DNA of 64,000 nt, taken from assembly GCA_003971905.1 (NCBI GenBank), contig RSEE01000125.1, positions 62,001 through 126,000 of the forward strand. The letters are read 5' to 3'. The position numbers and the translations under genes were made by a program. The stretch is from Moniliella sp. 'wahieum'. Taxonomy: Eukaryota. Under the pieces are notes generated by a model that was not told the origin of the DNA, did not search any database, and saw only the letters and a program-made list of their open reading frames with translations. This document shows, piece after piece, positions 13,901 through 56,169 of the stretch (within the stretch, counting starts at the first letter, position 1; each line of letters opens with the position of its first letter).

Positions 13901-15362
13901 AGGGTTCAATCTCCCCTTCTCCCTCTCCGCCACCGCCGAACCCCAGTTCACGGGAGAACAGTGTACCCTCCCCTTTGCCCACTGAGTCAAACATAACACC
14001 CGCATCGAATTACCTCTTTGCCCATCCGTCTGCTTCGCTACCCAGCCGGACCATCTCGCCCCTTGCCGAGGAGCCGATGCGGCAGAGCAGGTGGTGGTCA
14101 AGGAACAAGTCATTCGTCTTTCGCGCTGCCCACTCTGTGGTCGTGCCAGGCTGGCCCGCAAAGGCGAAGTGGACATTGTTACTCACTTGGCCGTCTGCGC
14201 GTCGCGCGATTGGGCCGCGCTCGATAAGATGGTGACCAAGGAGTTTGTTACGGCCATCAAGCTCAGCGCAAGTGGTACTTTAAGATGGTGCGCAAGTTGG
14301 GCCAAGGATCCTATGCCCTTGGCGCCAACTCGGCCAACATTATTGTTCAGGATCGAGCGACGGGAGAGATGCAAGAAGAGGCTGCCAAGGCCTATGTCTT
14401 TATCGGCATCCGTGCCCTTTATAAGGGCGCGAGACTACACGTCGAGGGAGCACGAGTAAGAAAGATGCTGCGTAACATGACACTCAAACAGGGTGCCAAG
14501 TTTGATGATCCCGCCTCTGTACGGGAGATTGCTCCGTTTGTCGCGTTCCACAAGTTAAATCTCGAGGAGATCTTGCTCCCGTTGGATCAATACAAAACGT
14601 TCAATGAGTTCTTTTACCGCAAACTTAAGCCCGGCGCTCGCCCCATCGAGGAACCCAACAACGAGTGGCGCCTCGTCTCGGCCGCCGACTGCCGCCTGAC
14701 CGTCTTTGCCTCGGTCCAAGAGGCGACGCGGGTCTGGATTAAAGGTCAAGGGTTCAACCTCCGCAATCTCTTGCGTGGTGCCCCCGGGGCGAGCGCAGTC
14801 GAACGGTTCGAGGGCGGACCAATGTGCATCTTCCGTCTGGCACCGCAAGATTACCATCGCTTCCATCTCCCTGTTTCAGGCCGTGTGGTGTGCATCACCC
14901 ACACCCCGGCGAGTACTTTACCGTCAATCCCCAAGCGGTTCGATCCAAGCTTGATATCTTTGGCTTGAACCGTCGCGCTGTCGTGGAGCTCGACACGCCC
15001 GCATTTGGAAAAGTTTTCCTTGTAGCTATTGGTGCGACGATGGTGGGATCCATCCTGTTTACCTGCGTTGAGGGGCAGATGGTCGAGCGAGGAGACGAGC
15101 TGGGCTACTTTGCCTTTGGCGGTAGCACGCTCGTCTGTCTCTTTGAGCCGGGACGGTGTGTGTTTGATGAGACTTGCTCACCAACTCGCGCGCAGCCATC
15201 GAGACGCTCGTCAAGGTGGGTAATGGCATTGGCCGCGGTACCCCGGAACACCGCACGCCTACGCCGCTCTCTACCAATCCCTCCCGTGGCCCGAGCAGGG
15301 TGGCCACCCCGAATCCGCAACTCCCGCCCGCACACGCCCAACCGGCTGGAACCCCTTTCTAG
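10966..15362 (+). CDS. PSD2: Phosphatidylserine decarboxylase 2 (C2 domain, EF-hand-like region and PSD domain)
   Basis: C2 segment VVGVVMLEVVGASDLPK...WDMDPF...VYDWDRLSTHDFVG. Catalytic region YKTFNEFFYRKLKPGARPI, AADCRLTVF, IFRLAPQDYHRFHLP, VAIGATMVGSI. Intact GGST self-cleavage motif at 15118-15129. Intron ~12727-12781; start is approximate. Confidence 0.92.
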
Positions 15363-17752: not shown

Positions 17753-17905
17753 GGCGCCTGTGTAGCTAATTTCCCGGCGCCGGTGGTGACGCGGTGACGA
17801 GACCCGGCCGATCCGGCTCGGTGGTTACGGAGGTCTTGCCACCACTACCACCACCACCACCACTACCCCTCTTCGCCACCACTACTGCTCTTCTCCCGCT
17901 GCACG

Positions 17906-20900
17906 ATGGACACGCTCCTCGACTTTAGTCGGGAGCTCGACGTTGGCGCCCTCGACCAGGTCGCTGCGCTCATGTACACGGGCACGGGTGCCGACCAGAA
18001 GCAAGCGCAGGACTTGCTACGCCAGTTTCAGGACCACCCCGACGCCTGGCAACGCGTGCCCACCATCATCACCGCCAGCTCTCGCAACGAGAGCAAGTAC
18101 ATCGCCCTCCAGATCCTCGACAAACTGATCAGTACCCGCTGGAAGACCATCCCGCCCGAGCAGCAGCAGGGCATTCGCAACTTTGTCGTCCAGACCACAA
18201 TTGAGCAGTCGTCGGACGAAGTCAACCTCCGTCGCGAACGCGTCTACATCAACAAGCTCAACACCACCCTTGTCGAGGTACGTTGTACCCCACCTGTGCC
18301 CTCTCCTCTCGCGCTCGCTAACCTTCCCCCGCCCCCTCTCTCAGATCCTCAAGCAGGAGTGGCCCCAGGGCTGGCCCAACTTCATCCCGGAAATTGTTGC
18401 TTCGAGCAAGACGTCGTTGCCGATCTGCGAAAACAACATGCACATCCTCCGTCTTCTGTCTGAGGAGATCTTTGACTTTAGCGCCGGGTCGATGACCTCG
18501 GTCAAGGCCCAAGCTTTGAAGGAGCAGATGGTGTCGGAATTCTCTGAGGTCTTCCGTCTCTGCTCAGAGGTCCTGGAGAAGGCACAGAAGCCCTCTCTGA
18601 TCAAGGCTACGCTCGACACCACCCTTCGCTTCATTACCTGGGTCCCGCTTGGTTTCATCTTTGAAACGACGTTCATGGACACCCTTCTGAGCCGCGTACG
18701 TTTGATTCCGTGTGATACGTGCGTATCGGTATTAACCTGTCTGCAGTTCCTTGAGCACCCCGACTACCGCAACGTGACACTCAAGTGTCTGTCGGAGATT
18801 ACGCTGGTCAGTCTGCCGGATTATGACCAGCAGCTGTTGATTCTCTTCCAACTGTCCATGTCTGCCATTAACCGGATGCTTCCTCCGTCTGTGGACATTG
18901 CTAAGGGCTACGAGGATGGCTCGGACGAGGACCAAGAGCTGATCAACAACCTTGCCATTTTCATCTCGACTTTCCTTACCCACCACCTCAAGCTTATCGA
19001 GACGGAGGATCACCGCGCTCTGCTCCAGAATGCGCATATGTACCTCATCAAGATCGCGATGGTGCCCGAGAAGGAAATCTTCAAGATCTGTCTCGAATAC
19101 TTTAGCAAGTTGACCCAAGAATTTTACGAGGAGATGCAAAAGATGCCCGTGTCCAACCCAATCTTGGGTCTCAACTTGGGGGGTGCCTTTGGCGGGAACC
19201 AGTCCGAAGCGGCGGCACTGGTGGCGATGCGCAAGACGATGTATGCCGACATTCTGTCCAATCTGCGGATGGTGATGATTGAGCGCATGGTGAAGCCGGA
19301 AGAGGTGCTGATTGTAGAGAATGACGAGGGGGAGATTGTGCGCGAAGTGTTGAAAGAGTCGGATGCGATGGTCATGTACAAGAGCATGCGCAGTGTGCTT
19401 GTCTACCTGACCCACCTCGATCCCGTCGACACGGAAAACATCATGACCGACAAGCTAACACGCCAGGTGGATGGATCCGAGTGGGGATGGAACCCGCTCA
19501 ATACACTTTGTTGGGCGATCGGATCGATTTCGGGGGCCATGTCGGAAGACTCGGAACGCCGGTTCCTCGTGACGGTGATCCGGGATTTGCTGACGCTGTG
19601 CGAGGCAAAGAAGGGCAAGGACAACAAGGCGGTCGTCGCGTCCAACATCATGTACATTGTTGGGCAGTATCCCCGTTTCTTGCGGGCGCATTGGAAGTTC
19701 CTCAAGACAGTGGTCAACAAGAACTTTGAGTTTATGCACGAAACTCACGAGGGCGTGCAAGATATGGCGTGTGACACGTTCCTCAAGATTGCACAAAAGT
19801 GCCGGAGACACTTTATCATCCAACAGGCCGGCGAGGCCGAGCCGTTTGTCGATGAGATCCTTCGTTCGCTCCACTTTACCACCAACGACCTGAGCCCGTC
19901 CCAGGTGCACACGTTCTACGAGGCGGTCGGGTTCATGATTTCGGCCCAGACGGATCAAGACCAGCAGGAGCGGCTGATTGCCAAACTGATGGAGTTGCCC
20001 AATTCGGCGTGGAGCAATGTACTGGAACAAGCACGAGCCAACGTTGATGTCTTTAGCTCCCCGGAGAACATCAAAGTTCTGGCCAATGTACTCAAAACCA
20101 ACGTGGCCGCCTGCACTTCCATTGGAGCTGCTTTCCTCCCGCAGCTGGGCAAGATCTACCTCGACATGCTCGAGCTGTACAAGAGCGTCAGCACCATTAT
20201 CTCCGCCAAGGTTGAGGTCGAAGGTTTGATTGCGACCAAGACGCCCATGGTGCGTGGTTTGCGGACGATCAAGAAGGAGATCTTGCGGCTGGTCGAGACG
20301 TATGTGGCACGAGCGACCGACTTGGAGTATATCTCGAGCTCGATGATCCCTACGCTACTCGAGGCAGTCCTGGGCGACTATGCCAACAATGTACCGGACG
20401 CGCGGGATGCCGAGGTGCTCAACGTGATGGCGGCCATCACCAACAAATTGGGTGCGCTACTCCTGCCCCGATCCAACCGACGATCGACGCCGTGTTTGAA
20501 CCTACGCTAGCGATGATCTCGCTGGATTCAGTGAGTTCCCCGAGCACCGTGTTGGTTTCTTCCCGCTTGCTGCGGGCCATCACAGAGAACTGCTTTGAGG
20601 CGCTTCTCACTCCCTCTGCCGCCCGAGAAGTTCCGGCTCACGATGGACAGCATTATCTGGGCCATCAAGCACACGATGCGCGACATTGCCGACCAAGGCT
20701 TGTTCATCATGTTGGAGCTGCTGGACAAGATCCGGTTGGCGGACGCGTCGGTGGCCCAAGCGTTTTACCAGACCTACCTCCTGGCCGTCTTGCGCGACGT
20801 GTTTGCCGTCCTGACCGACTCGGATCACAAGTCGGGCTTTGGTGGACAATCGATGTTGCTGGCCAAGCTGTTTGAGCTGGTGGGTACAGGTGCTGTGCTT

Positions 20901-21423: not shown

Positions 21424-23759
21424 CTACGGGGCAGGGGCAGGGGCAGAGGCAGAGGGTGATGGCGACGACGCGGCGGTCTGGGCCAAAGCGACCTCATCTT
21501 GCGCATGCGCCGCACGCCGCGGGCAGCGTACCAGTCCGGGAGGAAGCCCGGCGCATCGAGGGTACCCTGCTCAATGGCGTCCAGATGCTTGATCAAATCG
21601 TAGTTGGTCTCGGCAGGCACCTGGCTGTCCTGCCGATAAGCGGGGTGCGCCTGAATGAAGTCGCGGATAAACGTGGCGGCGGTTTTGAGCTTGCCGCTGG
21701 CGCGGTCCGAAACGAGAGACAGGTAGCGTTCCAATTCACACCGCGTCTCCACGTCCATTCGTAGCCGGTCAAGGTACGAGCGGACTAGTGGCACCAAGCC
21801 GGTAAACTCGTCCTGTTCCCCGATGTGGTCAGCGCAGGCTCTGGGCGAGGTAGAACGAAAGGCGGGCAGGCAAGGCAGGCGGCGAAGGGGAGGGGGAGGG
21901 GGGGAGTAGACGTACAGTACCATTGATCAACTCGTTGAGGGTAAACTCGGCATCTTCGTCTTCCGGTGCTGGTTCTGCGTCGGGGGAGGTGGAGTGTGAG
22001 TCGGGGTTGGAGGCAAAGGCCGAGCGGGCAAACGAAGGTGGGTCCGAGACCAATTCCTTCTCCTTGCCCTGAGCACGAGCATGCAAGTTGAGCAGCGCGT
22101 CTTTGCGGTACCCTGTCTTGCTACTGGAGCTTGCCGTGGTGGCTGGCGTGGGTGGGGTGCTGGTGCGCTCCTGCTCGGCCGTGAGAGCCTCGCTAAGAGC
22201 GCGCGGGTTGGGCCCAGCGGACGCCTTGGACAGAGGCGCAGCGCGGTGCCGCGACAGATCTTTCCGGAAAAAGAAGCGCTGCGTGTGAATCGCATCGCGT
22301 TGCTGGGCACGCTGCATGTTCACGTCCACCTTGGACAGAGGCATGTAGAAGTTCAGTCCGAAACTCAGGATGGCGCGGGTGAGAAGGACGACAAAGATGC
22401 TAAAGGCGGCATTCTCAAAGTCGGTGATTTGTACTTCCATCGACCGTACCTCAACCCGCCATCCAATCTTGCCACCCAGCGGAGGCGGCTTGAAGCGAAG
22501 GGTCTGCCAGTTGGTAGATTGAATGTTCTCAAAGTGATCCAGACTCTGCCGGTCGTCGAGGTCAACCATCTCGGAGAAGATGACAAGCGGGTCGCGGATA
22601 AAGAGGTGAGCAAAGTGCCGCGCCAAGCGATCGTCCAGACCATGTTCCTTTAACCGTGCCAGCACACCCTCGTCAATGGGAAGGGGATTGTCATTGTAGT
22701 ATGCCTTGTTGGCCGCATCGGTAGAGAGGTAAGAATCGACCGAGTCGTATCGGCTCTTGTTCATGTGCATGCGTCCTTTTCCCTTTGTGAGTAGCTTCAG
22801 TCCTTTCTCCTCGTCTGTCCGGTCGTCAACAGCGGCCGAAATGACGTTCCAACGCGCATCAACATTGGCGAGCCAACCGCGGTACACGGGACTGGCCGCC
22901 GAGAGAGCAAGAAGGAGAGGGTAACAGGAATCATTTGGTCATAGATGGTGCGCGCCTCCTTGACGGAGCATGCTTGAAACGTAGCCTGGAGACAGCAGCA
23001 GCCCATGCCAAAGCCCATGGCGTCCATGTAAATGTGATCGGGCAAGGCGGCGCCTTCAAACGCCTCGTTGTCTCCGGGGAAGAGAGAACGATGGGGGATG
23101 GTGGGGTCGTGGAACGGCCGGGGCGTGTTCACGTCGTGGAAGATGGGCACGTTGATGGCGACCTTTTTGCCGCGGCGCTTGCGGATGTTGGCCGTCAAGG
23201 TGGGGAAGCGCACATGTTGGTTGATAACCTGGTCAGGCAAGAACAGGCTTTGACTTGCGGGGCCATCGGGCGCATGGTCGGGATCGATAAAAGGCCTGCC
23301 AGGGCGCGGCGCTCCGAGCATCGGGTAACTCGTCACGGTCAGCGGAAGTTCATTGGGCCGCAGATGGGCACGGATAATGAGACGGCGCAGCGCATGTCGG
23401 GTTCGACCTGGCGCAGCTTGGGGACTCGCACCAAATGGCTGTCCGGGGGTGGTCTCCAGCATGAAGCGGCCATACTCGGGGTGGAAGAGCGGGTAGGTGG
23501 CGCTGCGACCCTCGGCGGCGGCCTCAAGCTCGAGCAGGATCTCTCCCTGGCGCAAACTCAGCGGCGCATTGCGCGCAGCATCGTCGAGGGCGACCACGAC
23601 GTACTCGAGCTCGTCGCCCCAGAGCATGTGGTCGCCCTGGCGGTCTTTGACGGCGTCCCAGAGATAGAGGAACTCGGTGATGCCGTGGGTGCGGACATGC
23701 TCGGCGAGCTTCTGGGAGTCGGGCCAGTCGAGGGGCGTGCCGAGTGAGAGGAGACCCAT
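21424..23759 (-). CDS. GSH1: Glutamate-cysteine ligase catalytic subunit (gamma-glutamylcysteine synthetase)
   Basis: MGLLSLGTPLDW, LWGDELEY, FHPEYGRFMLETTPG, HIYMDAMGFGMGCCCLQ, HFAHLFIRDPLVIF, HFENIQSTNWQTLRFKPPP and GWRVE. Intron near 21830-21917; end is approximate. Confidence 0.97.
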
Positions 23760-24563
23760 GGGGGACGAACGGTGGGGGGGGTGACAGGTGGGACGGAACG
23801 GCAGCGATGGCGAGGAGAGGAGAGAAGCGAGCGGCGAGAGAGAGAAGCGAGCGGCGAGAGGAGAATGCGAGGAACGCCCGATAAAGGAGAGGCAGGGCAG
23901 AAGAAAACCAGCTGGGCAGCACCGGGGTTAAAGCGGTTAAATCCGGCTGTCAGCACGCTATCGACGGCCGCCCGTTCGACCGGAGGATGCGTTCGCCATC
24001 GTCATCGATCGTCGACCATCGACCGTCAATTATCAATCACCCACCACCGCGTCATTTAAACTGGGGCGTTATATAGAGCCGTCGGCTCCTCTATCCACCG
24101 CCTGCTGATGCGAAACTCCCCTCGCCTCAGCGCCCGCCCCGCGGTCCCCATGCTCGGGGCGTAGCAAGGGTGGGAGTGGCACCACTGGTGTGCCCTCGGG
24201 CTGACTCCGATGCCTGCCTGCCACGCAACGCTGCTCCCAGATCTCATCCTCAGCCAGTAGCTGCCATCCTGGTCTCTGACATCGGGAGGTCTGCTCCCCA
24301 GCTGGGGCCGTGCTTGGGCAGCCATAAGGCCTAAGACCAAAGGTCTAGGACCCGACGCCGCCCTCAGATCTCAGCCTTCTCTGTCGATACTCCAAAACAA
24401 GTCCCCACTCCGCCCCGCTTGGTACCTCTCGGGACAATCTAGCATGAGCCTCTCCCTCCTCACACAAAGGAACAGAGAAAAAAAGATGCATGCAGCACAC
24501 AGGCCAGCGCAAAAAAGCTAGCAGCTTAAAGCACGCTGGCCTCCCTTAAGGCCGAACTCCCAA

Positions 24564-30362: not shown

Positions 30363-32227
30363 ATGTGGAGAAGCCCGCCCGCTGTGCCCCCTGTGCCTGC
30401 CCCTCTGCCTCCTCCTCATCGGCCTCGGCCTCGACGCCCGCATCGGCCTCCGTCCTTTCTGCCCCCTCGGCCCTCACACCCGCCTCGCCCGCCCCTGTCC
30501 CTCCTGTCCCTGCCGCACCCACCGCTGCCGCCGCAGCCGCCGGACGACGGCCTGCGCAGCCCCGCCGCCGAGGTAGACATGCTGGACGCGCGCGCCCCGC
30601 CCCGGCGCCAGCGCAGCTCCCGCTTCCACCTTGCCACCCCTGACCCGCGCGCACGCCAGCTGGAGCTGCTGCCACGTCTGGCCGAGGTGCCGGTCGAAGA
30701 GCGGGCGGCTGGCCGTGCGCAAGCTCGAGCAGGCCTCGGTCTTGTTTGACTTTACCACGGGATGACGAGGAGGGCAAGCAGCGCAAGGCGGATACACTGC
30801 GAGAGCTGCTCGAGTATCTCACCACCCTCCATGCCCCGATTCCTGATATCATCTACCCTGCCATGACCAACATGTTTGCCACCAACTTGTTCCGCACCAT
30901 CCCTCCGCCTCCTCCCAGCACGCTGCCCCCCGCAGCGGCCGATGTGTTTGAAATGGACGATGACGAAGCTGTGTTGGAGCTTGCCTGGCCGCACCTGCAA
31001 CTGGTCTATGAACTCTTCCTCCGCTTTGTCGAGAGTCCCGACTTTGTTACCAGTCTCGGCAAGCGGGTGATCGACCAAGCGTTTGTGTTGCGGCTGTTGG
31101 AGCTGTTTGATTCGGACGATCCAAGGGAACGAGACTTTCTCAAGACGACGCTGCACCGGATCTATGGCAAGTTTCTCAACTTGCGTTCCTTTATCCGACG
31201 CTCCATCAACCATGTCTTTTTCCAGTTCATCTATGAGACCGAACGACACCACGGGATTGCCGAGCTCCTGGAGATCATGGGCAGCATCATCAATGGCTTT
31301 GCTGTGCCGCTCAAGGAAGAGCACAAGACGTTTCTGGTTAGGGTACTGGTTCCCTTGCACAAGGCGCGCTCGCTGGTGCTCTACCACCCGCAACTGGCCT
31401 ACTGCGTCGTGCAGTTTCTCTCGAGAAGGATCCGGGCCTGACGCTGCCCGTGGTTCGTGGCTTGCTGCGGTACTGGCCCAAGACCTCTTCGCCGAAACAG
31501 GTCATGTTCCTCAACGAGCTGGAGGAGATTGTGGATGTGATGGAAGCGAGCGAGTTTGCCCAGGTGCACCCGCTGCTCTTCCAACAACTGGCTGCCTGCC
31601 TCGACTCGGCCCAGTTCCAAGTGGCCGAGCGGGCGCTGCTCATCTTTCAAAACGATTACCTGCTCAGCCTCGTTGCCGAGCACATCCACACGGTCCTCCC
31701 CGTTGTCTTCCCGCCGCTCTACCGCTCGGCGCGCACGCACTGGAACCGACAGATCCAGCCGCTGGTGCTGCAAGCGCTCAAGACGCTGAGCGATGAACCC
31801 GGGCTTGTTCCAGATTTGCACCGACGCCTTCACCGAATCGCAAGCTGCGTACGTCTGTCTCTGACTCTGTGTCTGTGTCTGTGTCTGGCTACGAGAGCAC
31901 ATGCTAACCAACTACCCCACCCCCCTTGGCAGCGAACCTTCGGTGCTGGCGGCCAAGGACGAGCAATGGTCGCGCCTGGCCGCGTCGGCGCTGCAGACGA
32001 GCAGCGCACTCAACCTCACCCCGCCAGCGTACCTGGTGGCCGACGTGGAGCGGCCGCCAAGGTGGCACGAGCACGCGGCGCACAGCGTCGTGTCGCCGCC
32101 CGTGCGGCCGCTGGAGGAGGCGATGGAGGTGGAGATGGACCGCTCCTCGCTGCTGGGCGGGGCGGTGGACCGGGACCCGCTGACGATGGCCGAGATGTCC
32201 TTCTCGCCCCCGAGCAACGAGCCCTGA
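30363..32227 (+). CDS. Protein phosphatase 2A regulatory B' (B56) subunit, Rts1/Par1 family
   Basis: [93 protein letters not shown] and FQVAERAL. Start is approximate; intron ~31849-31931. Confidence 0.95.
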
Positions 32228-32576: not shown

Positions 32577-33751
32577 ATGATCCTCCTCCCGCCCGAGAAC
32601 GCCATCATCCAGCATGTGCTGACCCAGCGCTTCGCGGTCCCCGGCGCCGTGGACCAGACCTTCAGCGACTTTGACGGTGTTGCGTACCACGTCGAAGCGC
32701 CCAAGGCCGGCCCCCTGACTCTGTCCATGGACATTCGCTGCTGGCCCCAGCTCGTGGCCCAGGGCGCGGACCAAGTGCTGGCGCGCGAGTATGGCGCCTA
32801 CCTCCTGCCTGCCTCGGAGGTGGAACAGGGCTACTCGGTCTCGCTGCGGTTCGACTATGCCGATCTGCCGAGGGCGAGGCCGCGCGCGCGCTGATCCAGT
32901 CGGTGGCCTTGCTCAAGCGCAATGCGATGGCCGCGCCGTTTGAAGCGGCGTTTGCTGCGCACAAGGCGCTCGCCGAGCAGTCCAAAGTCGTTGAGGGTGC
33001 CCATTCGGCCAGCCGCGGCGGAGCAAGTGACACGCTCGTCATCCCTTACCGGGAGGACGAGACGATCTACATCCTCCCCCTCGGCAGACCGGGTGACGGT
33101 GGTGTTCAGCACCGAGTTCAAGGACGAGACGGACAAAGTGTTTGGCCGCCTCTTCCTCCAGGTACGTGGTTTTGTTTTCTTGTCTGCCTGCCGTGGCGCC
33201 AGTTGCCAGCCACCAGGCACCAGGCACCTGCCCAGCCTCCGCTCACTGTTCTCTTGTCCTAGGAATTTGTCGATGCGCGTCGTCGACCGCAGATCCAATC
33301 CGCGCCGCAGGTGCTGTATTCCAACAAGGAACCTCCGCTCGAGATCCGGCACTTGCCCAACCTGGTGCAGGGAGACAACATTGGCTATGTTACCTTTGTC
33401 CTCTTCCCACGCCACTTCCAAACGCCCGAACTGGCCTATGCGACAGTCAGCACCATCCAGCTCTTCCGCGATTACCTCCACTATCACAGTACGTTTTTTT
33501 TTCGTCTTCTTTTTCTTTTCTTTCCTCTCTGGCATGGTGTGGCGTGGTGTACCACCGGGACCAGACCAGACCAGATCAGGCAAGACAGGATAAACATCTC
33601 CGGTGTGCCAGTCAAATGTTCCAAGGCGTACATGCAGTCGCGGATGCGACACCGTGTTTCGGAGTTTACCAAGGTGCTCAACCGGGCCAAGCCAGAGCAG
33701 GCCGACAAGGAACGCAAAACTGCGTCGGGGCGGACGTTCAAGGCGCGCTAA
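32577..33751 (+). CDS. ARC35: Arp2/3 complex 34-kDa subunit (ARPC2)
   Basis: [88 protein letters not shown] and KTASGRTF. Introns 33162-33262 and 33489-33611. Confidence 0.97.
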
Positions 33752-35862
33752 CTACCGCCGCTCCCGGGGCCCTGTCCGCCATGGCTCGGTGCAGGCGCAA
33801 GAACAATCCCATCTGGATGCGTTTTGTCTTTCTCTTGGTGCGCGGACCACGGGACGGCTGTTCTCGTGGTTTTTGGAGACAGACAGGAAGGGGGGGGGAT
33901 ACGATGTGCAGAAAGCAAGTTGTGGGGAATGGGGGAAGAAGAAGTGACAGGTGAGACTTACTTTGCGTGCAGGCCTGGTTGGCTGCTAGGGTCAGAGGGG
34001 GGCAGGCTCCAGACGAAGGGAAATGTGTAGCAAGAAGCGTTCTTGGTTATTGCTTGCTGAGGAGCACACTGGCCTGGCGGTACAGAGGCAGTACAGCGTG
34101 ACGATGCGTTTGGCGGGGACTGGACTTGGACTGAGCCAGGCGCCCTACCGAATGGCCTGCCCGACAAGCGCCGTGTCCTACTGCCGTATAGAATGCCAAA
34201 GGAGGGAGGACTAGCCGTTCTTTTCCTCTACACACAGCTCGATCGGGGGATCCAAGCCAGCGTGTGCGTACGGTAATGCCATCGCATTGCTGAGGGCGAT
34301 GAGGGCCCACGCCGCGACCAACGATCGGCATCATACACGCGGACACCAGGGCGCAAAGTGAAGACGCACAGGCCCAGACCGTGGAACAAGAAACCAGAGC
34401 AAGAAATCATTAGGGCCCCCTAGGCAGACGCCCAAGGGATGTATAATATCTGTGTGTAGGCAGGACGTTCATTGCACGCAGCTTTCCTAGCATTTCCTCG
34501 CCGTGAACAAACAGGAACGTACCCGCGTTAGCGTGTTGGCCACCCGGAATACGCGCTCTCATCATTCCCCATTCCCATTCCCAGGGCATTGGGCGCATAT
34601 TACTTTGTTTACTGTCGCAGCTAAGCGACCCTACCTAGCTCACTTCAATCCCATCCGTGCCTCTGGTTCGTCAGCAAGCAGGTTCAGAGTGGTCCCTAGC
34701 TCCGCAAGCTGTGCCGTTCCCGCGCAGCATGTGCAAGTGCGCAAGTGCGGTATCGTGGCCTCGCTAGAGCACAGCATGGGTTTCATTGCACCCGCACCGA
34801 TGCAGTCCATGTTTGGTGTATTGCAAGAGGGCAGTGCGGGATCCCATAGCCCATTCTCCAGCTCGTACGCTCCATCCCCGACGCCGTGATCCACAACGAG
34901 CCGCCCGACTGTGCAGGAGGAGGATGGAGCGGGGCGTGGGAGGGAAGCAATGCGCACTGACTACCGCGTGGTGGGACCTGGGGCAGTGGAGCAATGCGAG
35001 GATGAGGAATGGGGGTGGATCACATTCACATGTTGAGGCATGTTGCGGGGCTCGGGGACGCAGGAGGCGTTGACTACGTATAGGAAGGTAGCAGAGCGCA
35101 CCGCTACGGCATAGAATGCCTGTTGAGAGGAGAAGGAGCTGTTGCTTTGGCGGTTCGCCTGGTTGCCTATAATAACCGACTGACGTTTGGGCTGGGTGCC
35201 GACAAGCAGCACGCGCCGGGTGAGCAGGTCGGTTCAAGCGCAATGCGGGTCTTTGTCCTCTGGCAGCTGTAATAGAAGCTCAGTCAAGGATGGATGGGTG
35301 CAGTATCGAGATCTGAGATGAATACCGCGCAGGAGTGGTGAAGCTTGAAGCTTGAAGTACGGCCCATCATCGACATCATCAGAGTGCCAGCGTTGGATGC
35401 TCGACGGTTGCACGTTGCTGCGCAAGTGGGGGGCTCTCTTCCAGCTTCCCCCCAGTACAACAAGCGGTCCACCACCGTGGCATCAGTACTCTCAGTGCTG
35501 TAGAAACACCGCCCCCCTCCCGCCGTGTCGCCCAGTGCGACGGCTGTGTTTGATATGCACTCTGCTATTGACTACTGACGTACTGAGTACTGACGCGTGA
35601 CGTTATACGTTTTCCGTTTCAGGTACGGTGACGCGCTGGTGCACATCAACGCGGGGTAACATGGTAACATGGTAACAATGTAAGAGCATCATGCATCACT
35701 CTTCGACGCCCGAACCTACACGGTCCCCCCACCTCGCGCACCCTCCCTCGTTCCTGTCTACGCTTGGCCCAATCGGCCTCGGGCGTCAGATCTCAGATCT
35801 CAGGGCAGGCCAGCCTGTTGGGGGAGAGAGAGAAGCAGGAACCGAAGCGAGGGTACAAGAGC

Positions 35863-35961
35863 CCTGTCCTGTCCTGTCCTGTCCTGTCCCTGTCCTGTCC
35901 TGTCCTGTCCTGTCCTGTCCTGTCCTGTCCTGTCCTGTCCTGTCCTGTCCTGTCCTGTCCT
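35863..35961 (+). repeat. (CCTGT)n pentanucleotide microsatellite
   Basis: About 19 near-perfect tandem units. Confidence 0.95.
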
Positions 35962-36639
35962 ACAGAAGGTCGGGGAAGCCCGCCATAGGTCAGGCCACGT
36001 GGGGTACGGTTCCATTACCCCGACGCCGCGGCCTTGCCAGACCGACACCAAGCCGCTCGTCTCCCTTCTCTGCACGTCCACATGTCTTCTGCCTTCCTTC
36101 CCCTCCCCCAGCTGGCCAGGGGACGACGCAGCACGGACGCCGCCTACGCGCTACGCACAGGGCACGCGAGAGGGTGCCAAATCGCGTGGGTGGCGAGGGT
36201 GAACAACTAGGGATAAGCTAGAGCGCATCAGCCGCGCGCACTGCCAAGATCGCCTGCCATTCCCCCCCCTCTGTTCTGTCGCTGTCCCTGTCTCCCCTTC
36301 CCACGCCCGCGCCCGCGCCCGCGCCCGCACAGGTTCTCCGCACGTACGTAGCAGCGCACCCGCGCCCGGTACGAGGGCCCGGACACGAGCGGGTGTGGCC
36401 GTCGAGCCTGGGGGTGGGTCGACGCAGCATGCAGGATGAGAGAAGAAAGAATAAGGAAGGGGGAGTGAGGAAGGAAGAGTGAGGAAGGGGGGGTAAGGAA
36501 TGGAGGTGTGGAATGAGAACCCTAACGGGGGATGAGATATGCGGCGTAGTACAGGAGGCAAAGGCAGAAGACAGACCAAGGAAGGGGGAGCGAAGGGGGG
36601 TGGTACGCTCAGGTGGTGTGCCTAAGCGCTAGGCGCTAG

Positions 36640-37633
36640 CTAGGCACGGACAAACTGCACCACCTCCAGCTGCAACGGCGCGAGATCGAGACAGGTACGT
36701 GTGGTGCGCACGTACCCGGGCAAGTGACGGGGCAGAGACGGCGTGGGTGCGCCCTTACCGTAGGGCGTTTGCGTTTGCGGTTGCGTGGCAGCAGGCGCAG
36801 GCGCCTCGAGGAAACCCTCGGGCGAATCGTCCTCTTCGGGGGAAAAGACAAGGAGCGTGATCTGTTTCGGACTCAAACTGGACGCTGCCGCACGTAACAT
36901 GCTGCCCACCTCGATCGGGGGGACGCCGGTGCACTCGTACTGCACTCCCTGGGCGTAGGGCAGACCAGGCCAGACGCCCAGGGGGGCGCAGTTAGCGCCG
37001 TTAGTGACGGTACCGACGGTGCCTGCCACCGGGATCGACGGCGTACGACACGGGTGAATCCGGTGCGGCGCACGGCGCGGGCAGGGAGAGAGAGAGCAGC
37101 AACGTATTTGGTTCGGCAGACTGCGTGGGCAGACCAAAGTAGAACAGAGCGAGGCAGTCGGGGTTGGTCAGCGTGCCAAGCACGTACCGTTTTCCGGTCG
37201 GAAACCGGTGTGCAAGCCACTCTGCCGCACTGTCCGCGTGGGCAGGGGCGGTATAGATGCACCGCGTCACCTCGAGCTGGGACAGCCACGCCTCGGGGCG
37301 CAAATGCGGGCCGGAAAGAAGTAAGGTGTGGTCCGTGACGACCAGATAGCCGTCCCTGGCACGGGTGGGCATAATGTCAGCGACCAGCGTCGCCAGTCCA
37401 AGCGGCGGGGGGGGGGGGGGGGGGGACGTACGGGAAACAGTAGGTATCCCTCTCGGGGGTGCTGGTGGCGGGGGCCCCCCACAGGGTGGGCACAAGTGCG
37501 CGGCCGCCTGGGGCAAAGTGGAGCTGGAGCCGTTCAGGGCGGGCCGGAAGCGGAAGCGGAAGCGGAAGAGAGCAGGGTCGCAGAGCGTGGTATCGGACGC
37601 GATGCTGGCCGCCTCCCAGCGGTCCACGCCCAT
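36640..37633 (-). CDS. Divergent S-adenosylmethionine decarboxylase-like protein lacking the autoprocessing (ES|S) motif; probable pseudoenzyme. One frame break at ~37010-37085.
   Basis: Colinear resemblance to eukaryotic AdoMetDC as recalled: RGIPTVSR; DGYLVVTDHTLLL (cf. [22 protein letters not shown]); RCIYT; WLAHRFPTGKRYVLGTLTNPDCLALFY (cf. [25 protein letters not shown]); EPNTLLLSL (cf. PDQTLEILM); VQYECT (cf. VSFETN); MLRAAASSLSPKQITLLVF (cf. LIRKVVEVFKPGKFVTTLF); GYVRTTRTCLDLAPLQLEVVQF (cf. [22 protein letters not shown]). Confidence 0.72.
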
Positions 37634-39434
37634 GGGGTCGGGCTCGAGCAGCGTCTCTTGGGGCCCCAGGCGAGTCAGGGGAGTCCAGGCAGGCAAAGCA
37701 GGTGGTGGGAACAGAGGGCGGGCGGGTCGGACGCCGTGCCGAGGCCAGCGCCAGTGGGGCTGCTATCTGCTCTTCACGCTTCACACTTTACCTTGAAGTG
37801 AAGCTTCATCTGTAGCGCTTCAATGTTCAACCTGCCCCCCCCGGCCGCTGGGCCGCTCGGCGCCGCGCCTGCCGCGCCTGGCGCGGCGGCACACTCCCCC
37901 TGGGCTCGGCTGGGCACCGCGCCGCCCATGCGTATGCGGCGCCCACGCTCCCCCTTGGATGACGTGATTAATGACGAATGCCAAGCGCCAAGCACGCCAC
38001 ACATCTTCTGCATCCATCCGCCCAACGCAAAATACAATACAGGTGCCGCTCGGTTGGACGCGATGCGCGCCAGGATGATAAGGGCGATCAAGACGAAAAG
38101 AAATGGCCTCCAGGCTCCCGTCGGGACTCGACCAATGTGCCGCTCTCTGCGCTTCTCCTTGTCCTCTCGTGTTGGCCTAGGGAGCCGGACGGGCAGAAGG
38201 TCGATGAGGAGAAAGTGATGGATTGGAGCCAGCGTTGGGTCTGGGTGTAGAGGCATCTATATAGGAGGCCGGACTAGGCACAGGGCCAGTGAGTCACAGG
38301 AGAGAGTGCAAGGCACAGGCCGGGATATGGCAGTGACACGCTGGGAAGCAGCGTGGAAGCCGATATGGAACCGAGGCGAACCTGGTTTACCGACTGGGAG
38401 CTGGAGGATCACAGTCAACATCTCCCCCACCACATCCTTCCCTGTGCTCGCTGCGAACGCTGCCTCGGGGCTGTGTGGTGCATCGGCGTCACGGTGGTCA
38501 GGCGCACCTGAGCGGGATGCGGGGTAAGCGGTAAGCGCTTACCGCTAAGCCAGCTGGTGGCTCGTGCGTTGGCCACTGTGCCTGAGTTCCTCCCTAAGCC
38601 TAGGAGCTCGCTTTTTCTCTCCTGTGTTACTTGTTCCGCAGCGCCCCGGCGGCGACTCGCGGCTTGGTGTTCCTCTGTAGCAGGGGTAGCGGGTTGGCTT
38701 CGACCACCACCTCCACCACCAGTGCGATTGCATCACCCTCGAGGAGCCTTAGCACTCCAGGTCTCCGCAGGGGGTGGAAGGGGCATGGCTTGATCGAGCG
38801 CCCCGGGGCGGAGGCACCGCAGCGAGGGGAAGGTCACGTGCATGCGGGGGTAGGGCTAGCTGCGTGTGGATGTCATCTGCGTTGGGTGCGGGTGTGTGGC
38901 GGCGGAGTTCCGTCGGGGGAGGGAGTGGGAGGGAGTGGGGGATGGTCGATGGTATGCCAAGAACCCGTCACGTGGCTGACGCAGGCACGCACACGTGCCG
39001 TCTGGCGTGGGGGGGGCATGTCACATGTCAGTACGCCTGGCACGGCTCAAGTGCGCGAGGAACGTCCACCGCACAGGCTGAATGTTTCATCCGGCGCCCA
39101 GGCTGCCAGGGACGAGGCACACTGGGCGGGTGGGGCGGGCGCTACGTAAGCGCGTAAGCCGCCAGGCGATCGACGGGGATTGGGCTGGGACACGTGACGC
39201 GCGTGACGCAGGCAGCGGAGATAAAAACCTTTTTTAACGGCCGCAGCCAGGCACGGGCGGAACGAGAGGCTTAAGCTAAAGCTCAGCACAGCTCAGCCCG
39301 ACGCACTCAGCCATCTGCACAGCGCCGCACCGCCCAGCCTCTGCCCCAACGCCGACAAGCCCGCTTGTCGATTGCCGCTTTTCTGCTCTGCTCTTTTCTG
39401 CTCGCCGCCCGCCTTCCTGCCTCCCTCCACCCTT

Positions 39435-41272
39435 CTGGCTGCGCCCCTGTACAGTGCGTCTTTCTTTCCCCCCTCCTCCTCCTCCTCCGTTCTAACCCCC
39501 CCCCCCCCCCACCGCCAGCCACCGCCTCCGGCCAGCTCTTCCATGCCGGCCAGATCCTCGTCGCCACCGTCGGCCTCCCCGCGCGCGGCAAGACCCATCT
39601 GAGCCATGCGCTCGAACGCTATCTCATCTGGCTCGGCGTCAAGGCCAAGGTCTTTTCCCTGGGCGACTACCGCCGCAAGCGTCTCGGCCAGCCGGGCGAC
39701 CTGCCCCCCGACTACTTTGCTGTCGGCGGCGGCAGCGCCGCGACCGAAGCGTTGCGCAACCAGATCCTCGATGAGTTTGACGCCACGGTGCGCGCGTACT
39801 TTGCCTCGGGCGGCCAGGTGGTCATTTACGATGCGAACAATGGCCAGGAACGTGCGCGCAAGCAGCTGCGCGACCGCTTTGCGCCCGACCATGTCAGTGT
39901 CATGTTTCTCGAGACGGTCTGCGACGATCCGCGCGTGATCGAGGCCAATGTGCGCGCCGTCAAGCTGTCCAGCCCCGACTACCGCGGCTGGTCCCAGGAC
40001 GACGCGGTGGCCGACTTTTACGCCCGCATCCGGTCCCGCCAGGCCGAGTACGAGACGATCAACAATCCGTCCTTTCCCTATGTCAAGATCATCAATGTGG
40101 GCGAACGTGTGGTGGTCAACAACCTGCGTGGCTACCTCCAATCCCGCATCTGCTTCTTCCTCATGAACGTCCACAACCGCGACCGTACCATCTACCTTGC
40201 GCGTGCGGGCGAGGCGCGGATCGAGCACCTGTACAAGGCCGATGCTGATCTGAGCTCGCTCGGGTGGGAGTATGCACAGGAACTGACGGCGTTTGTGGAG
40301 AAGCTGCGCGACCCTACGCTCGTCTCGCCCCCGCTTTCTGTGAGCGACAAAGCTGCGAGCGATAAGGGCGCGAGCCAGACCCCCAGCTCGGCGGGCAGCC
40401 CGACCGAAGCCAAGTTCGCCTCGTCCCGGCCCCACAGCACCTTGTCTGCCCAGAGTGGCGGGAGCGAGACGCGGCGCTTGGAGGTATGGACGTCGAATCG
40501 TCGGCGCGCGTCGCATTCGTGCTTTTACTTTCGCGAGCAGGGGTACAAGGTGGTGGAGAAGAGCCAGCTGTGTGAACTCAACCCCGGTACGGTGGATGGT
40601 CTGAGTGAGGAGGAAATCCAAGCGCGTTATCCGGAAGACTATGCGCGGTTGCAAGCCGAACCGTATGGAGGCCGCTACCCGCGCGCCGAGTCGTACCATG
40701 ACCTTTGCGTGCGCATCGAGCCGGCCATCCTGGAGCTGGAACGGACGACGAAGGATACGCTGATTGTGGCGCAAGCGAGTGTGCTGCGTGTGCTGCTGGG
40801 CTACTTGCAGGGCAAGCCGCCGCACGAGATCCCCCACCTCGACTTTACCGAGGGCGAGGTGATTGAGATTCGTCCGCAAGCGTATGGGATGCAGACTACC
40901 ACGCACCGGTTTTGGGACCCGGTGGAACGACGTCGGGTACGCGACCAGCTCTGGGCACGACAACGCTCCGCACACAAGTTCCGCTCCGCCCTCCTTCCCC
41001 TCGCCTCGCTCCGGACCGGCCTGAGAAACTGTCGGGCCTCTTCCCACTCGCTCCGGCTACCGCCCTTCCCTCCCCCGCCCCGCGCCACACCGTTCTCCCC
41101 TGCCCGTGTCCATTCCGCCATTGCGCGCTGCCGCATGCGGACCGCTCCAAGGCCTAACCTAGTCCCTTGTCTGGCTCCCTCTGATTCATCTCCTCTCCCT
41201 CTCCCTCTCCCTCTCTCGCCCTGCGCCTCCGTCTCCGCCCTTGCTCCCGTTCCCTTTCGCGCTAGACCTTGA
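39435..41272 (+). CDS. 6-phosphofructo-2-kinase/fructose-2,6-bisphosphatase family protein (YLR345W-like); intron 39454-39518; no ATG found
   Basis: TASGQLFHAG, Walker A VGLPARGKT, FSLGDYRR, VVIYDANN, VKLSSPDY, YVKIINVG, GYLQSRICFFLMN and RYPRAESYHDL. C-terminus is uncertain (41157-41272). Confidence 0.93.
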
Positions 41273-46165: not shown

Positions 46166-47593
46166 GGTCCTCGCAGGCCAGCGACGGTGGGGGCAGAGCA
46201 AGCGAGGGCAGCGGCAAACCAAGGAAGGGGTGGCGCCACGCCAGGCGTCCCCTGGCGTCCCTGGGCGCGGCCTGGTTAGGCCAGGCGAAGGCGTGCTGCC
46301 CACTGCAAGGTTCAACTTGCTGCTGCTCAGCCCGCCTGGGGCGTCGCACACACTGGCCCCGCGGCCCACCCCCCCCCCCCCCCCCGCAACACCCACACTG
46401 CCCCTGTGCCCCACGCCACGCGGTGAAACCCGTGCTTAGCTAACCAAATGCAATGGGCGATGCACGGCGGCGGGCGCTGCATGGGTGGGTTTAACGTAAA
46501 ATTTACCCTCCAGCCCTTTTGCCCTGATCGAGATCGAGGCTGGAGGGCCACCAGGCAACTTCAACACCAGCTCCAAGCACCCCCAACCGCCATCAACTCA
46601 CCAGGCACTGTGACATGCTAGCGGGCGTCGTCTCGGTTTGGAATGGGTAGGTAAGCGTAAGCGCCCCACGTAGCCACCCCCGTCTCTCCGCCGCGCCAGA
46701 CGATGTAGACGGACGTCGAATGTGCCGCAGCGCATCTCATATCCATGACATTGACAGTCGGTCCTAGTCAGAACAGTAGCTTTGTATAGATCCCCCTGTT
46801 CCGATTATTTATCTACTTTGGCTGCTGCCTGTGCCTGCCGTTTCTGCGTGGTATATGAAGCTAGCCACTCCTGTCGGCACGAGATCACGATCGCACTACG
46901 CCGGAGATCAGAATCGAGGAGCACTCGTAGATAGACAGTAAGCAAGTATGCTCTCCGCAACTCGCTCTGGCCGCGCATTCGACCTGCCCGTCTGGCATTC
47001 TGAGATCTGAGACCGGATTGATGGAAGGAGATGATTTACGCACGGGCGGCGTGGCGTGGCATGCGCGTGGCCCTGTCGGGATAGTCGATATAGCAGCGAG
47101 ATGGTCATCCATTTGCGACGAATGATCGCCCCCGTCCAGAGCGTGAGCGCCGAGACACCCGCCGGCGCGCGTGCGTGCCTCAGGCCTCCGACCCCATACA
47201 GAGGCGCTTTCCAGCGTCCTTGTCCATCCGTCACGCGTCGCATGTCACCGCCGCCGCTCTGGCTTGGCGCTGTCGCAGAGCGTAGACAGCACGCCCGCCG
47301 CCAAGGTGCGCCCAGGTGGAACAAGCGGAGAGCGATGCGAGCATCTGCCGTGCGTTCTTTGTACATACCCCCGCGTCTGCCCGTCTGATGCGTCTGCGTA
47401 CTTGTACGCACGCTTCAAGCTTCCGCTTCAAGGCACACTGGCTTGGCACTTGCCACACTCGCCCCTGCCGCCTGCTCCCCTTGCTATCAGTGTGGCTCCT
47501 CGGCGGCGCGCATGGTGCTGATGGCGGTATAAGCGCAGCGCAGCCGAGCCGGTACTTCCACCATCACCCTCATCCCCCCCCTCCAAGGCAGAG

Positions 47594-53286: not shown

Positions 53287-54373
53287 TGTGAGAGAGACGA
53301 GGATGGGGGTGGCAGAGAGAGGTGGCGGTGTGTGAAAGAAGGCTGGCCGAGCGCGAGACTGCGAAAAGCTCAGCCGGGGCGCTTCCATCGACCATCGTTT
53401 TCCGCTGCCACGAATCGCATGATCGCTGACCGAGATGATGTCGACAATCCTAGGGAGGAGGGGCAGCCACGAGCAGCTGTCGATGATCGATGACGTCGAT
53501 GATGTGGGAAACTTGAAATCAACCAAGGACCATCCAATTCCGCCTCCCCATAGCATGGCCCAGCCTCTGAACGTTCAGTTGAACAGAGCAAGCACCATCC
53601 AGCAACGTTGGATGGGTCAAATTTGCTTCTGCCGGTCACGCGCCAAGTCGCACAGGCCATCCCACACGCCATAAGCACACGCGCCCAGACTCTCGCTCAC
53701 CCCGGAAGAGACTCGCGAGGACGATTAATGATTTCGCTCGTTGGCTGCATATGCCCAACAAAGGACTCGGACCCCAGGAGGAATCGTGGTGGGCACGGCC
53801 CATCCAAAGCCGAGGTGCCACCAGTAATAGTGGCATAGTAGAGCTGCCCAACCGCCGTGTCCACTCGGCCTGCTCGCTGGGCGTGCACGGTCGAAGATCT
53901 GACTAGTGACTGTCGGTGCAACAAGCCATGCGGTGATGACGCGATGACGGCCATGAAACGCCGTCCGTTTGGGGGGAGAGGCGGTTTATTTGTTGGCCAG
54001 TGAAAGTTACAGGACCCGAGTGCAATGCCAGACGGATCGGCGGTGGGACTACATGGGGCCCATCAGGCACGGCTACTGCTGCACGACACTCCCTCGGCGA
54101 CGCTCGGCCGAGACGTCGGGGGAAAAGCAGGTTGGCGCGTGAAGGCCAGCTTGCACACCCGCACCTGAAATCCCCAGTTTTAGGGCTGCCTTGGCCGAGC
54201 AACCCTTGGCGCCGCCCCTCGGCACGCACTGCGCCAGTCTCTCTCCAGCCGTCCCAGGCGGTCCCCCTCGCGCATCTTCTCCCTTCCCCCATCCCGACGC
54301 CCCCACCGCCGTTGGCTGGGTTGCTCCTGCCACCATCTCCCCACCCCCACTCCCTCCTCCTCCTCCTTCCAGC

Positions 54374-56169
54374 ATGCCCCCAGCGCGTGTCGCTGTCGTC
54401 GGTTCTGGCCTTGCTGGCCTGGCCTGCGCCCACCGTCTAGCGGCGGCATGCGATGTGCACGTCATTGAAGCCGCCCCGCTCTGGGCCTCGACAGTGCCTC
54501 CATTCTTGTCCGCCCACCTACCCTTTCCACCTCGTCCGACGCCTCCACCCCAGCCCCACCCCGGATGCACACCCAGCAGTGCGAGTGGATGTACCGATGC
54601 GCGCACTCAACTATGGATACTATCCCGAGACGTGCGCGCTCTACCGCCAACTGGGCGTTTCGCTCCAGCCAACCGAGTTCACCTACTCCTTTGCCACCGC
54701 CGCTCCGCGCAACCCACTGTCGCCCCGTCAAGCATCCGTGCCCTCCAGCTCGACCGACAGTGTTGCGGGCGCGTCCGAACCCTCACAGACCGCCCGCCCC
54801 AACAGTTCTCAGTGGCAAGCCCCGCCGCCCCACACATTGTACAATGGCGCCTCGGGGCTGCGGGGGTGGGCCTGCCTACGCAGTACCGTTGGAAGGCGGC
54901 CCGGCAGCGTGCTATCACCCAGTGGGGCTCTCTCCCTTCCCCCCTGCTCCTGATCGCTACCGCCCTGGATATCATTCTCGGCTTGGGACGGTATACTCTT
55001 TGGTGGGGCGGGATGTTGTGGTCCTATGTATTGTTGTTGGTCTATGCACTCTATCACCACCATCTCGGCCACTTGCGCGACTCGTCGCATGAGTTGACCA
55101 AAACCCACGTGGCAAGTTGGCTTGGTATCCCGCTTCAGCGCAAACTCGCTCAGCCCCCACGCGGCTGGGGGTACGGCCAGCTGTTAATGACGGACTTTAC
55201 GCACACATGCTGCTTCCGCTCATGAGTGCCGTGATGACCTGCCCCATCTCCGAGGTGACAGAGGCGCCTGTGGCCGATATCCTCGAGTATGTTGCGGCTA
55301 CTTTCCTCCGCTCCCACGCACGCGTGCGAGGTGGCGTGACCCGGGTTCAAGCTGCCCTCGTTGCTTCCATCCCTGAGGACAACATTCATCTTTCCACACG
55401 CGTCGTGGGCATGACTCCGACCCCAGGTGGGCGAATGCAGCTTCATGTCTCCCCTTCGGACGGAGGCGCACCAGGTACGCTCTGCCCCTCCTGGGCAGAA
55501 TTTGATCACGTTGTGCTTGCCACCCCGGCCGATTTGGGCGGAGAATTGGTGGAGCACTACCTGCACTCCTACCTCGATAAGGGTGGTAACGAACACGCTG
55601 CGTTGCTCCGATCCTTTGCAAACGCTCTCGCCTCTGTCCCTTACACAGCAGTCACGGTAGTCAACCATACTGATCGTCTCTTGCTCCCCCCCGCGCCGGA
55701 GGACTGGAGAGACCTCAACCTGATCCTACCTTTGCGGGGGGGGCAAACGATGGCCACCCACCTTTTGGCTCAAGATTTCCCCTCGCCCAACGGTCCGCAA
55801 CTCTTGCTCCAAACCACGGCACCACAAGAACAGAGCGGCATGGCTCCGCGTTCGGCTACCGTGCTTTCGACCGCAACCATGCGCAGAGCACGCACTACCC
55901 TCGCATCGCGCCAGATCCAAGGCCGCACCCTGTTCCAGTGGACACGCCGGCCATACGGACGACTGGTACACTGCCTCTCTTCCCTGCTGGGCTTGGCGCA
56001 ATGGGACCTCTCCCTCGGTGCAGCGCAGGGGGTACCGCTGGTAGAGCATGGCACCGAAGCTCGCATTTGGGCGTGTGGCTCGTGGTCCCCTGGAATCCCT
56101 TTGTTGGAAGGATGTGTCCGCTCCGCCCACCTGGTCGCCGACGCTATTATTCAGTTGGAGCAATCCTAA
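54374..56169 (+). CDS. FAD-dependent oxidoreductase (amine-oxidase-like / predicted NAD-FAD-binding protein)
   Basis: Rossmann motif RVAVVGSGLAGLACAHRL...VHVIEAA, then RVDVPMRAL..GYYP, FDHVVLATPA, VVNHTD and C-terminal IWACGSWSPGIPLLEGCVRSA. Confidence 0.85.

Follow-up and report, generated by a model that had tools for sequence, protein, structure and literature searches.

A probably coding orphan gene with sub-threshold, colinear resemblance to S-adenosylmethionine decarboxylase

The window analysed here, i.e. the whole stretch of 64,000 nucleotides, has a G+C content of about 60% and a eukaryotic gene content, with Pfam-recognised housekeeping genes (Table 1) and short introns that bear CTAAC/CTGAC branch motifs. 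The gene set and these introns suggest a fungus. CRM1 gave no closer placement, since its best PDB entry, 4fgv (884 bits), scored little more than other exportin-1 entries (833 and 794 bits). The gene under study lies on the minus strand in a 5-kb gap that extends from ARPC2 to 6-phosphofructo-2-kinase (6PF2K). A sequence-only reading of the locus had proposed that it encodes a catalytically dead homologue of S-adenosylmethionine decarboxylase (AdoMetDC), maintained as a regulator of polyamine synthesis. The letters are as it described them. The start codon ATG and the stop codon TAG are both present at the two ends of the gene (Table 1), two minus-strand frames are open (37001..37762, 253 codons, and 36640..37167, 175 codons), the strings DGYLVVTDHTLL (from 37354), FPTGKRYVLG..NPDCLALFY, VQYECT and SPKQITLLVF are all found, and a run of 19 G is present at 37407-37425. 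About 700 bp downstream of the stop codon lies a (CCTGT)n microsatellite (35863-35961, 19.6 copies), and more short repeats are found nearby at 36300-36328 (CCCGCG) and 36437-36500.

Table 1. Features of the minus-strand gene and of the surrounding window (positions are those of the window).
Feature	Position	Strand	Basis or remark
Candidate start codon ATG	37631..37633	-	codon starts at p mod 3 = 1; codon score positive 37700-37580
N-terminal region, Pro/Ala-rich, low-complexity	37432..37630	-	no AdoMetDC likeness in any frame
Putative intron A, 76 nt	37356..37431	-	GTACGT donor 37431-37426, CTGAC 37380-37376, CAG 37358-37356
Core exon (exon 2), DGYLVVTDHTLL...FPTGKRYVLGTLTNPDCLALFY...TLLLSLSL	37052..37355	-	codon usage 0.248 bits per codon
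AdoMetDC-like block 1 (exon residues 28-77)	37124..37273	-	hhalign columns 121-181, end of the enzyme's N-terminal half
Putative intron B	36949..37051	-	GTACGC donor 37046, ACTAAC 37005-37000, GCTAAC 36996-36991, CAG 36951-36949
Last exon (exon 3, 102 codons), GVQYECTG..SPKQITLLVF..(Pro/Gln-rich insert)..LPGYVRTTRTCLDLAPLQLEVVQFVRA	36643..36948	-	codon usage 0.224 bits per codon
AdoMetDC-like block 2 (in exon 3)	36646-36945	-	hhalign columns 296/309-381 of 415; exon residues 12-101 against columns 309-381
Stop codon TAG	36640..36642	-	read in sequence
CRM1	17798-20510	+	Pfam
Glutamate-cysteine ligase	21829-23927	-	Pfam
ARPC2	32675-33750	+	Pfam
6-Phosphofructo-2-kinase (6PF2K)	39275-41272	+	Pfam
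Maf1, B56, SPX-CitMHS transporter, phosphatidylserine decarboxylase, OPT and sugar transporters	in window		Pfam

The frame-consistent gene model encodes 296 aa, with the ATG frame read straight through putative intron A and a 103-nt intron B spliced out. The sequence-only reading had taken the region at about 37010-37085 as an indel and had asked for both this site and the poly-G run to be repaired from reads. Each of these sites lies inside an intron-like stretch with a GTACG. donor, a branch motif and a CAG acceptor. Putative intron A contains the G19/C19 homopolymer and, if unspliced, is read through by the ATG frame as poly-Pro. An exon 1 in the frame required by splicing of putative intron A was rejected, as no ATG occurs in that frame and nothing in it resembles AdoMetDC. 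The reading frame of the N-terminal region, which includes a (CGGAAG)4 repeat at 37545-37568, is uncertain: the ATG frame stays open, and codon usage favours another frame from about 37540 to 37432. At putative intron B, use of the well-formed signals (GTACGC donor at 37046) would remove 98 nt and lead to the wrong phase and a stop at 36873; the sole frame-consistent intron, of 103 nt, has a weak GTGTCG donor at 37051. An assembly indel near putative intron B is a plausible alternative to this weak donor. A crude intron search missed most introns of known genes as well and so says little on donor usage. Further upstream, a possible mini-exon at 37792-37809 (minus strand) has an ATG at 37809, six codons and a GTAAAG donor-like site at 37791, followed on its 3' side by CTGAC (37678-37674) and AG sites (37658-37655), and judging from these signals it could form an alternative 5' end of the gene.

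How the frame breaks are read depends on the quality of the assembly. Three conserved genes of the window switch frame with no room for an intron while their Pfam positions run on, i.e. OPT at about 573-585, B56 at about 31418-31424 and phosphatidylserine decarboxylase at about 14905-14915 (all plus strand). Short G runs coincide with two of the three switches and a CTCTC repeat with the third, and uncorrected indel errors in the assembly are the most likely cause. Because three conserved genes carry such intron-less frameshifts, we did not read the frame breaks in the gene under study as decay; indeed, these frameshifts undermine frameshift-based pseudogene calls anywhere in the window. Homopolymer runs of at least 8 bases number 26 in the window. 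Among the homopolymers, C runs at 39496-39510 (15 bases) and 46369-46385 (17 bases) lie inside or adjoin the 6PF2K and SPX-transporter ORFs.

The window contains 111 stop-to-stop ORFs of at least 170 aa, so open frames of the length seen here are no evidence of a gene. We therefore scored codon usage by log-odds, with six ORFs of the window that Pfam supports as the training set. The two cores scored 0.248 (37049-37354) and 0.224 (36643-36948) bits per codon, both higher than all 189 stop-free wrong-frame control windows (maximum 0.207 bits per codon) and both inside the range of 213 true-frame control windows (mean 0.391, 5th percentile 0.111 bits per codon). The G+C content by codon position was 0.66/0.52/0.75 and 0.68/0.53/0.73 for the two cores, respectively, in the order GC3 > GC1 > GC2. 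Within the gap from ARPC2 to 6PF2K, codon scores of at least 0.1 were obtained only for the two ORFs of the gene and for one 90-codon ORF. This sole other coding-like ORF of the gap (34964-35233, minus strand) scored 0.161 bits per codon and has a GC3 of 0.71. Taken together, the codon scores, the G+C content by codon position and the comparison across the gap indicate that the minus-strand locus is probably coding, or was coding until recently.

Searches that were blind to the protein family gave no relatives. For the two ORFs Pfam returned no family even at E<=10, and the single exons likewise drew a blank at E<=1. Thus, at standard thresholds there is no match to the SAM_decarbox profile, the outcome that the sequence-only reading had itself named as speaking against the homology. 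PDB searched by phmmer yielded nothing at E<=10. A word-index search for homologues in 5.8 billion clusters gave no match at E<=0.01 among 677 candidates scored and none at E<=0.1 among 264 candidates scored. The lone phmmer match of exon 2 in 1.84 billion representatives, P0002 (1111 aa), was discarded as spurious, since a weak 32-residue match to an unrelated protein was summed over 9 tandem repeats. ESM Atlas placed exon 2 with bacterial hypothetical and PH-like clusters (0.88-0.90) and exon 3 with PDZ and hypothetical clusters (0.76-0.78), with no PF01536 cluster for either exon. No orthologue was found by the word search (5.8 billion clusters) or by phmmer of exon 2 (1.84 billion representatives). 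As these searches gave no orthologue from which to compute dN/dS, the maintained pseudoenzyme described by the sequence-only reading is unsupported.

Targeted comparisons with AdoMetDC used reference sequences collected from metagenome contigs, which were scanned with a degenerate pattern of two motifs to give 74 loci and 39 full-length ORFs (38 distinct). A further 120 AdoMetDC proteins, those with a source name being mostly fungal, were collected by means of one fungal-type ORF. All of the 42 sequences in the working alignment, A1, match PF01536. HMMER was run with its filters off on every six-frame ORF of the window of 25 aa or more (1447 in total). Under the 38-sequence profile the exon-2 ORF came 2nd (E=2.6), under the 158-sequence profile it came 1st (E=2.3, 3.3 bits), and the exon-3 ORF had a colinear match at hmm 306-376 with the latter (E=21). 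The window-wide E-values of 2.3-2.6 are not significant. Our own AdoMetDC HMMs gave the gene 3.3-5.7 bits, which does not reach the curated PF01536 threshold of 22.2 bits. The spliced model scored 3.8 and 5.2 bits (single-test P 1.4e-3 and 4e-4), values matched by none of 2000 within-exon shuffles; exon 3 alone scored -1.9 bits with the 38-sequence HMM. When the spliced model was used as query in phmmer --max, real AdoMetDCs reached a maximum of 11.8 bits versus a decoy maximum of 2.9, and with exon 3 alone decoys scored up to 7.1 versus 11.3 for real sequences.

Profile alignment with hhalign against A1 recovered two blocks. Block 1 (HMMER 3.3-5.7 bits) aligned over 49 columns with a score of 26.0, a P of 8.4e-4 and a probability of 23.9%; the profile consensus there is FYSRK..PH..E..LD..F..G.AY.VG..NGDHW.LY. 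Block 2 aligned over 73 columns with a score of 28.2, a P of 6.8e-4 and a probability of 26.9%, against the consensus SFETNVP..LI.RVL.IF.PG...TLF...Y.R.D.I...F..YDL.FA.F, and its alignment reaches both C-termini. The controls scored lower: shuffles of exon 2 and of exon 3 (n=138 each) had maxima of 22.4 and 20.0, respectively, natural 102-aa segments of the window (351 of 402 run) had a maximum of 20.5 (mean 12.3, sd 2.5), the 52 of these natural segments that come from Pfam-supported proteins had a maximum of 18.7, reversed profile or reversed query (n=4) gave 10.2-11.6, and the other 51 of the 53 ORFs in 36300-38300 gave at most 17.4. A Gumbel tail fitted by hand to the mean and sd of the natural segments places the two blocks at about 5e-4 and 2e-4. 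Global hhalign of the gene against the AdoMetDC profile gave P=0.45. The sequence-only reading had counted about eight blocks in AdoMetDC order. Two regions were recovered, one with FPTGKRYVLG..NPDCLALFY and the other with VQYECT, SPKQITLLVF and GYVRTTR to the C-terminus, but the N-terminal blocks and DGYLVVTDHTLL are at background.

The likeness in the recovered regions extends to single residues. Block 1 keeps the consensus H, L, F, G, Y, G, N and D, and block 2 keeps E, P, Y, R, L and F; the two blocks are colinear with columns 121-181 and 296-381 of the 415 of AdoMetDC (Spe2/AMD1, class 2, PF01536), and the alignment ends at the C-terminus of the gene product and of the enzyme alike. As judged from these alignments, the colinear, better-than-control resemblance of the two blocks to AdoMetDC is weak but specific. 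With Pfam blank at E<=10 and only 3-6 bits from our own HMMs, the evidence for homology stays below threshold. The statistics should also be read with caution, because the hypothesis came from these same motifs and out of a very large scan; given the multiple testing involved, the P values are nominal.

The nearest alternative is that the resemblance arose by chance, in a real but unrelated orphan gene, young or fast-evolving, that was noticed when an ORF was compared with many remembered families. Consistent with this, every family-blind search (Pfam, PDB, ESM Atlas and phmmer) was blank, the window-wide HMMER E-values were 2.3-2.6 and the hhalign probabilities stayed below 30%, and four claimed equivalences (LSESS, KTCG, the FEGxEK type and PCGYS) are at background or absent. 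The 45-aa DGYL stretch discussed below fits another part of the profile equally well, so such matches arise easily. On the other hand, the two highest hhalign scores belong to neighbouring ORFs that share a strand and follow the order of the enzyme, and they exceed those of the 351 natural segments and the 51 other ORFs; the second block ends at the C-terminus of the AdoMetDC family; shuffled and reversed controls never approach the scores of the gene, and the Gumbel-tail estimates are small for each block. Going by the alignments, two adjacent, same-strand, colinear top scorers in one window would be hard to get by chance. The gene resembles orphan fungal genes with low-complexity sequence in that it has no detectable homologues in 5.8 billion clusters and 1.84 billion representatives, has microsatellite and Pro/Gln-rich stretches and gives low single-sequence AF2 confidence, yet orphans do not normally resemble one enzyme family in a specific, colinear way and with scores above those of natural, shuffled and reversed controls. 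We regard a chance resemblance as a possible but rather unlikely explanation, and descent of the gene from AdoMetDC, on the alignment evidence, as somewhat better than an even bet.

What the gene does not contain is as informative as what it retains. The sequence-only reading had placed DGYLVVTDHTLL where the enzyme has YxLSESS. This equivalence failed: the 45-aa stretch around DGYLVVTDHTLL, which holds DGYL, scored 13.4, i.e. at background, as controls reached 15.4 (60 of 1652 segments run), and its best alignment fell elsewhere in the profile, on another DA[YF]L site. No Glu-Ser pair is found at the DGYLVVTDHTLL site, where the self-cleavage site of the proenzyme (consensus DAYLLSESS) was claimed. 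The LSESS and KTCG columns are gaps in the greedy hhalign alignment, and KTCG is also unaligned at default settings. For PCGYS and TIHVTPE, profile columns of about 232-295 (about 65 columns) have no counterpart, only about 100 nt lie between the two blocks, and no other frame in 36300-38300 scores above 17.4. The three frames upstream of 37355 gave hhalign scores of 10.3-11.2 for the N-terminal FEGxEK strand, which is background. The A1-invariant columns with no counterpart in the gene are E38, G39, E41 and K42, E99, S100 and S101, T113, C114 and G115, P383, C384, G385 and S387, and T411, H413, T415, P416 and E417 (P0106 numbering). It had been said that KTCG, PCGYS and TIHxTPE are unrecognisable; no catalytic motif was found, but the segment from PCGYS to TIHxTPE is absent outright.

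These absences decide two further claims. The product cannot be an AdoMetDC enzyme, as the term 'catalytically dead' had it, with the cleavage-site, KTCG, PCGYS and TIHVTPE segments all gone. Because these catalytic segments are missing, not mutated, the product cannot form the pyruvoyl group or decarboxylate AdoMet. The scaffold, on the other hand, is not kept as had been supposed: some 100 positions of the profile are unmatched, with no DNA available that could encode them, the N-terminal FEGxEK region has gone as well, and in all about a third of the AdoMetDC fold is missing. As to the four-layer alpha-beta-beta-alpha sandwich of the enzyme, single-sequence AF2 gave a mean pLDDT of 35.2 (194 aa) and 47.2 (102 aa), values that do not warrant a fold search, and the low-confidence model of the last exon has the helix/strand order H-E-E-E. 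From the alignments and these models, we infer that the retained parts may be the last strand-helix-strand-strand unit of each AdoMetDC half.

We propose that the locus is a lineage-restricted, probably coding gene of about 296 aa, most likely the eroded, non-catalytic remains of an AdoMetDC, and we give this reading a probability of about 0.45. The N-terminal 90 or so residues would be Pro-rich low-complexity sequence, and the remaining 200 or so would form two strand-helix-strand-strand-like blocks, most likely the eroded ends of both halves of eukaryotic AdoMetDC. The gene probably originated as an AdoMetDC duplicate and is presumably still functional; its product, if it acts at all, would act by binding, not by catalysis. 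Compared with AdoMetDC, the gene has no Pfam match and none of the invariant catalytic columns, its AdoMetDC-like part is about 200 residues whereas the shortest full-length enzyme collected has at least 324 aa, and its N-terminus is Pro-rich and of low complexity.

The same remains could instead be a decaying relic, i.e. a partial, non-functional AdoMetDC duplicate in which the frame changes and the lost core segments are traces of pseudogenisation. Deletion of about a third of the fold fits such a relic, as do the frameshift and stop at 36873 that follow from the well-formed intron-B signals, the switch of frame in codon usage in the N-terminal part, the microsatellites within the ORF and the failure to find orthologues in the searches. 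The frame breaks, however, are unreliable in an assembly with frameshifts in OPT, B56 and phosphatidylserine decarboxylase. Moreover, had the sequence diverged so far under neutrality, neither open frames nor codon bias should have survived, yet open frames of 253 and 175 codons persist with gene-like usage. A neutral relic is therefore the less likely reading, and we consider it improbable.

A functional AdoMetDC relative with no catalysis of its own has a precedent in trypanosomatids. The prozyme, a catalytically dead AdoMetDC paralogue that forms a heterodimer with AdoMetDC in a solved complex, is confined to trypanosomatids according to the available text of PMC5201418. The gene described here would resemble the prozyme as a non-catalytic AdoMetDC relative encoded apart from the enzyme, and would differ from it in that its fold is truncated, about 100 profile positions and the N-terminal region being absent, not substituted. 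Literature searches over 8.1 million PMC papers and 0.36 million preprints turned up no AdoMetDC-derived non-catalytic protein in fungi. In the 64-kb window there is no PF01536 gene (SPE2) by Pfam or by our own AdoMetDC HMMs.

It is highly unlikely that the gene is a maintained, catalytically dead paralogue of AdoMetDC and, through binding to the active Spe2 or to a polyamine/AdoMet ligand, a prozyme-like regulator of polyamine synthesis: this reading can draw on the evidence for AdoMetDC descent and coding status, on retained blocks that are sheet-forming elements (low-confidence secondary structure) and on the trypanosomatid precedent in the available text of PMC5201418, but the gene is not a full-length paralogue, its product having neither the N-terminal strand nor the cleavage-site region nor the strands from PCGYS to TIHVTPE, the searches gave no orthologue, no SPE2 lies within the window, and the prozyme is, in that text, confined to trypanosomatids. 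Binding to or regulation of Spe2 by the product is unsupported. A bolder version, also very unlikely, is a minimal AdoMetDC-derived pseudoenzyme in which only the terminal strand-helix-strand-strand unit of each half of the enzyme is kept, fused to a disordered Pro-rich arm; by binding to Spe2 or to a polyamine/AdoMet ligand it would adjust polyamine synthesis, as an independent and more reduced counterpart of the prozyme.

At present, the locus is an orphan gene that lacks annotation, its similarity to AdoMetDC is sub-threshold, and the assembly around it has indel errors. If both its AdoMetDC descent and its maintenance are true, it would provide the first case outside trypanosomatids of a non-catalytic protein derived from AdoMetDC and would show how far an enzyme fold can shrink and yet be retained. 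The main practical value of the analysis is a caution, as comparison motif by motif had made the homology look more extensive, and the scaffold better retained, than they are.

Elsewhere in the window, two adjoining ORFs at 54143-56169 (plus strand) encode a flavin amine oxidase domain (PF01593, E=9.3e-7) together with an NAD/FAD-binding motif. From these domains, the pair, about 17 kb from the gene described here, could be a polyamine-oxidase-type gene.
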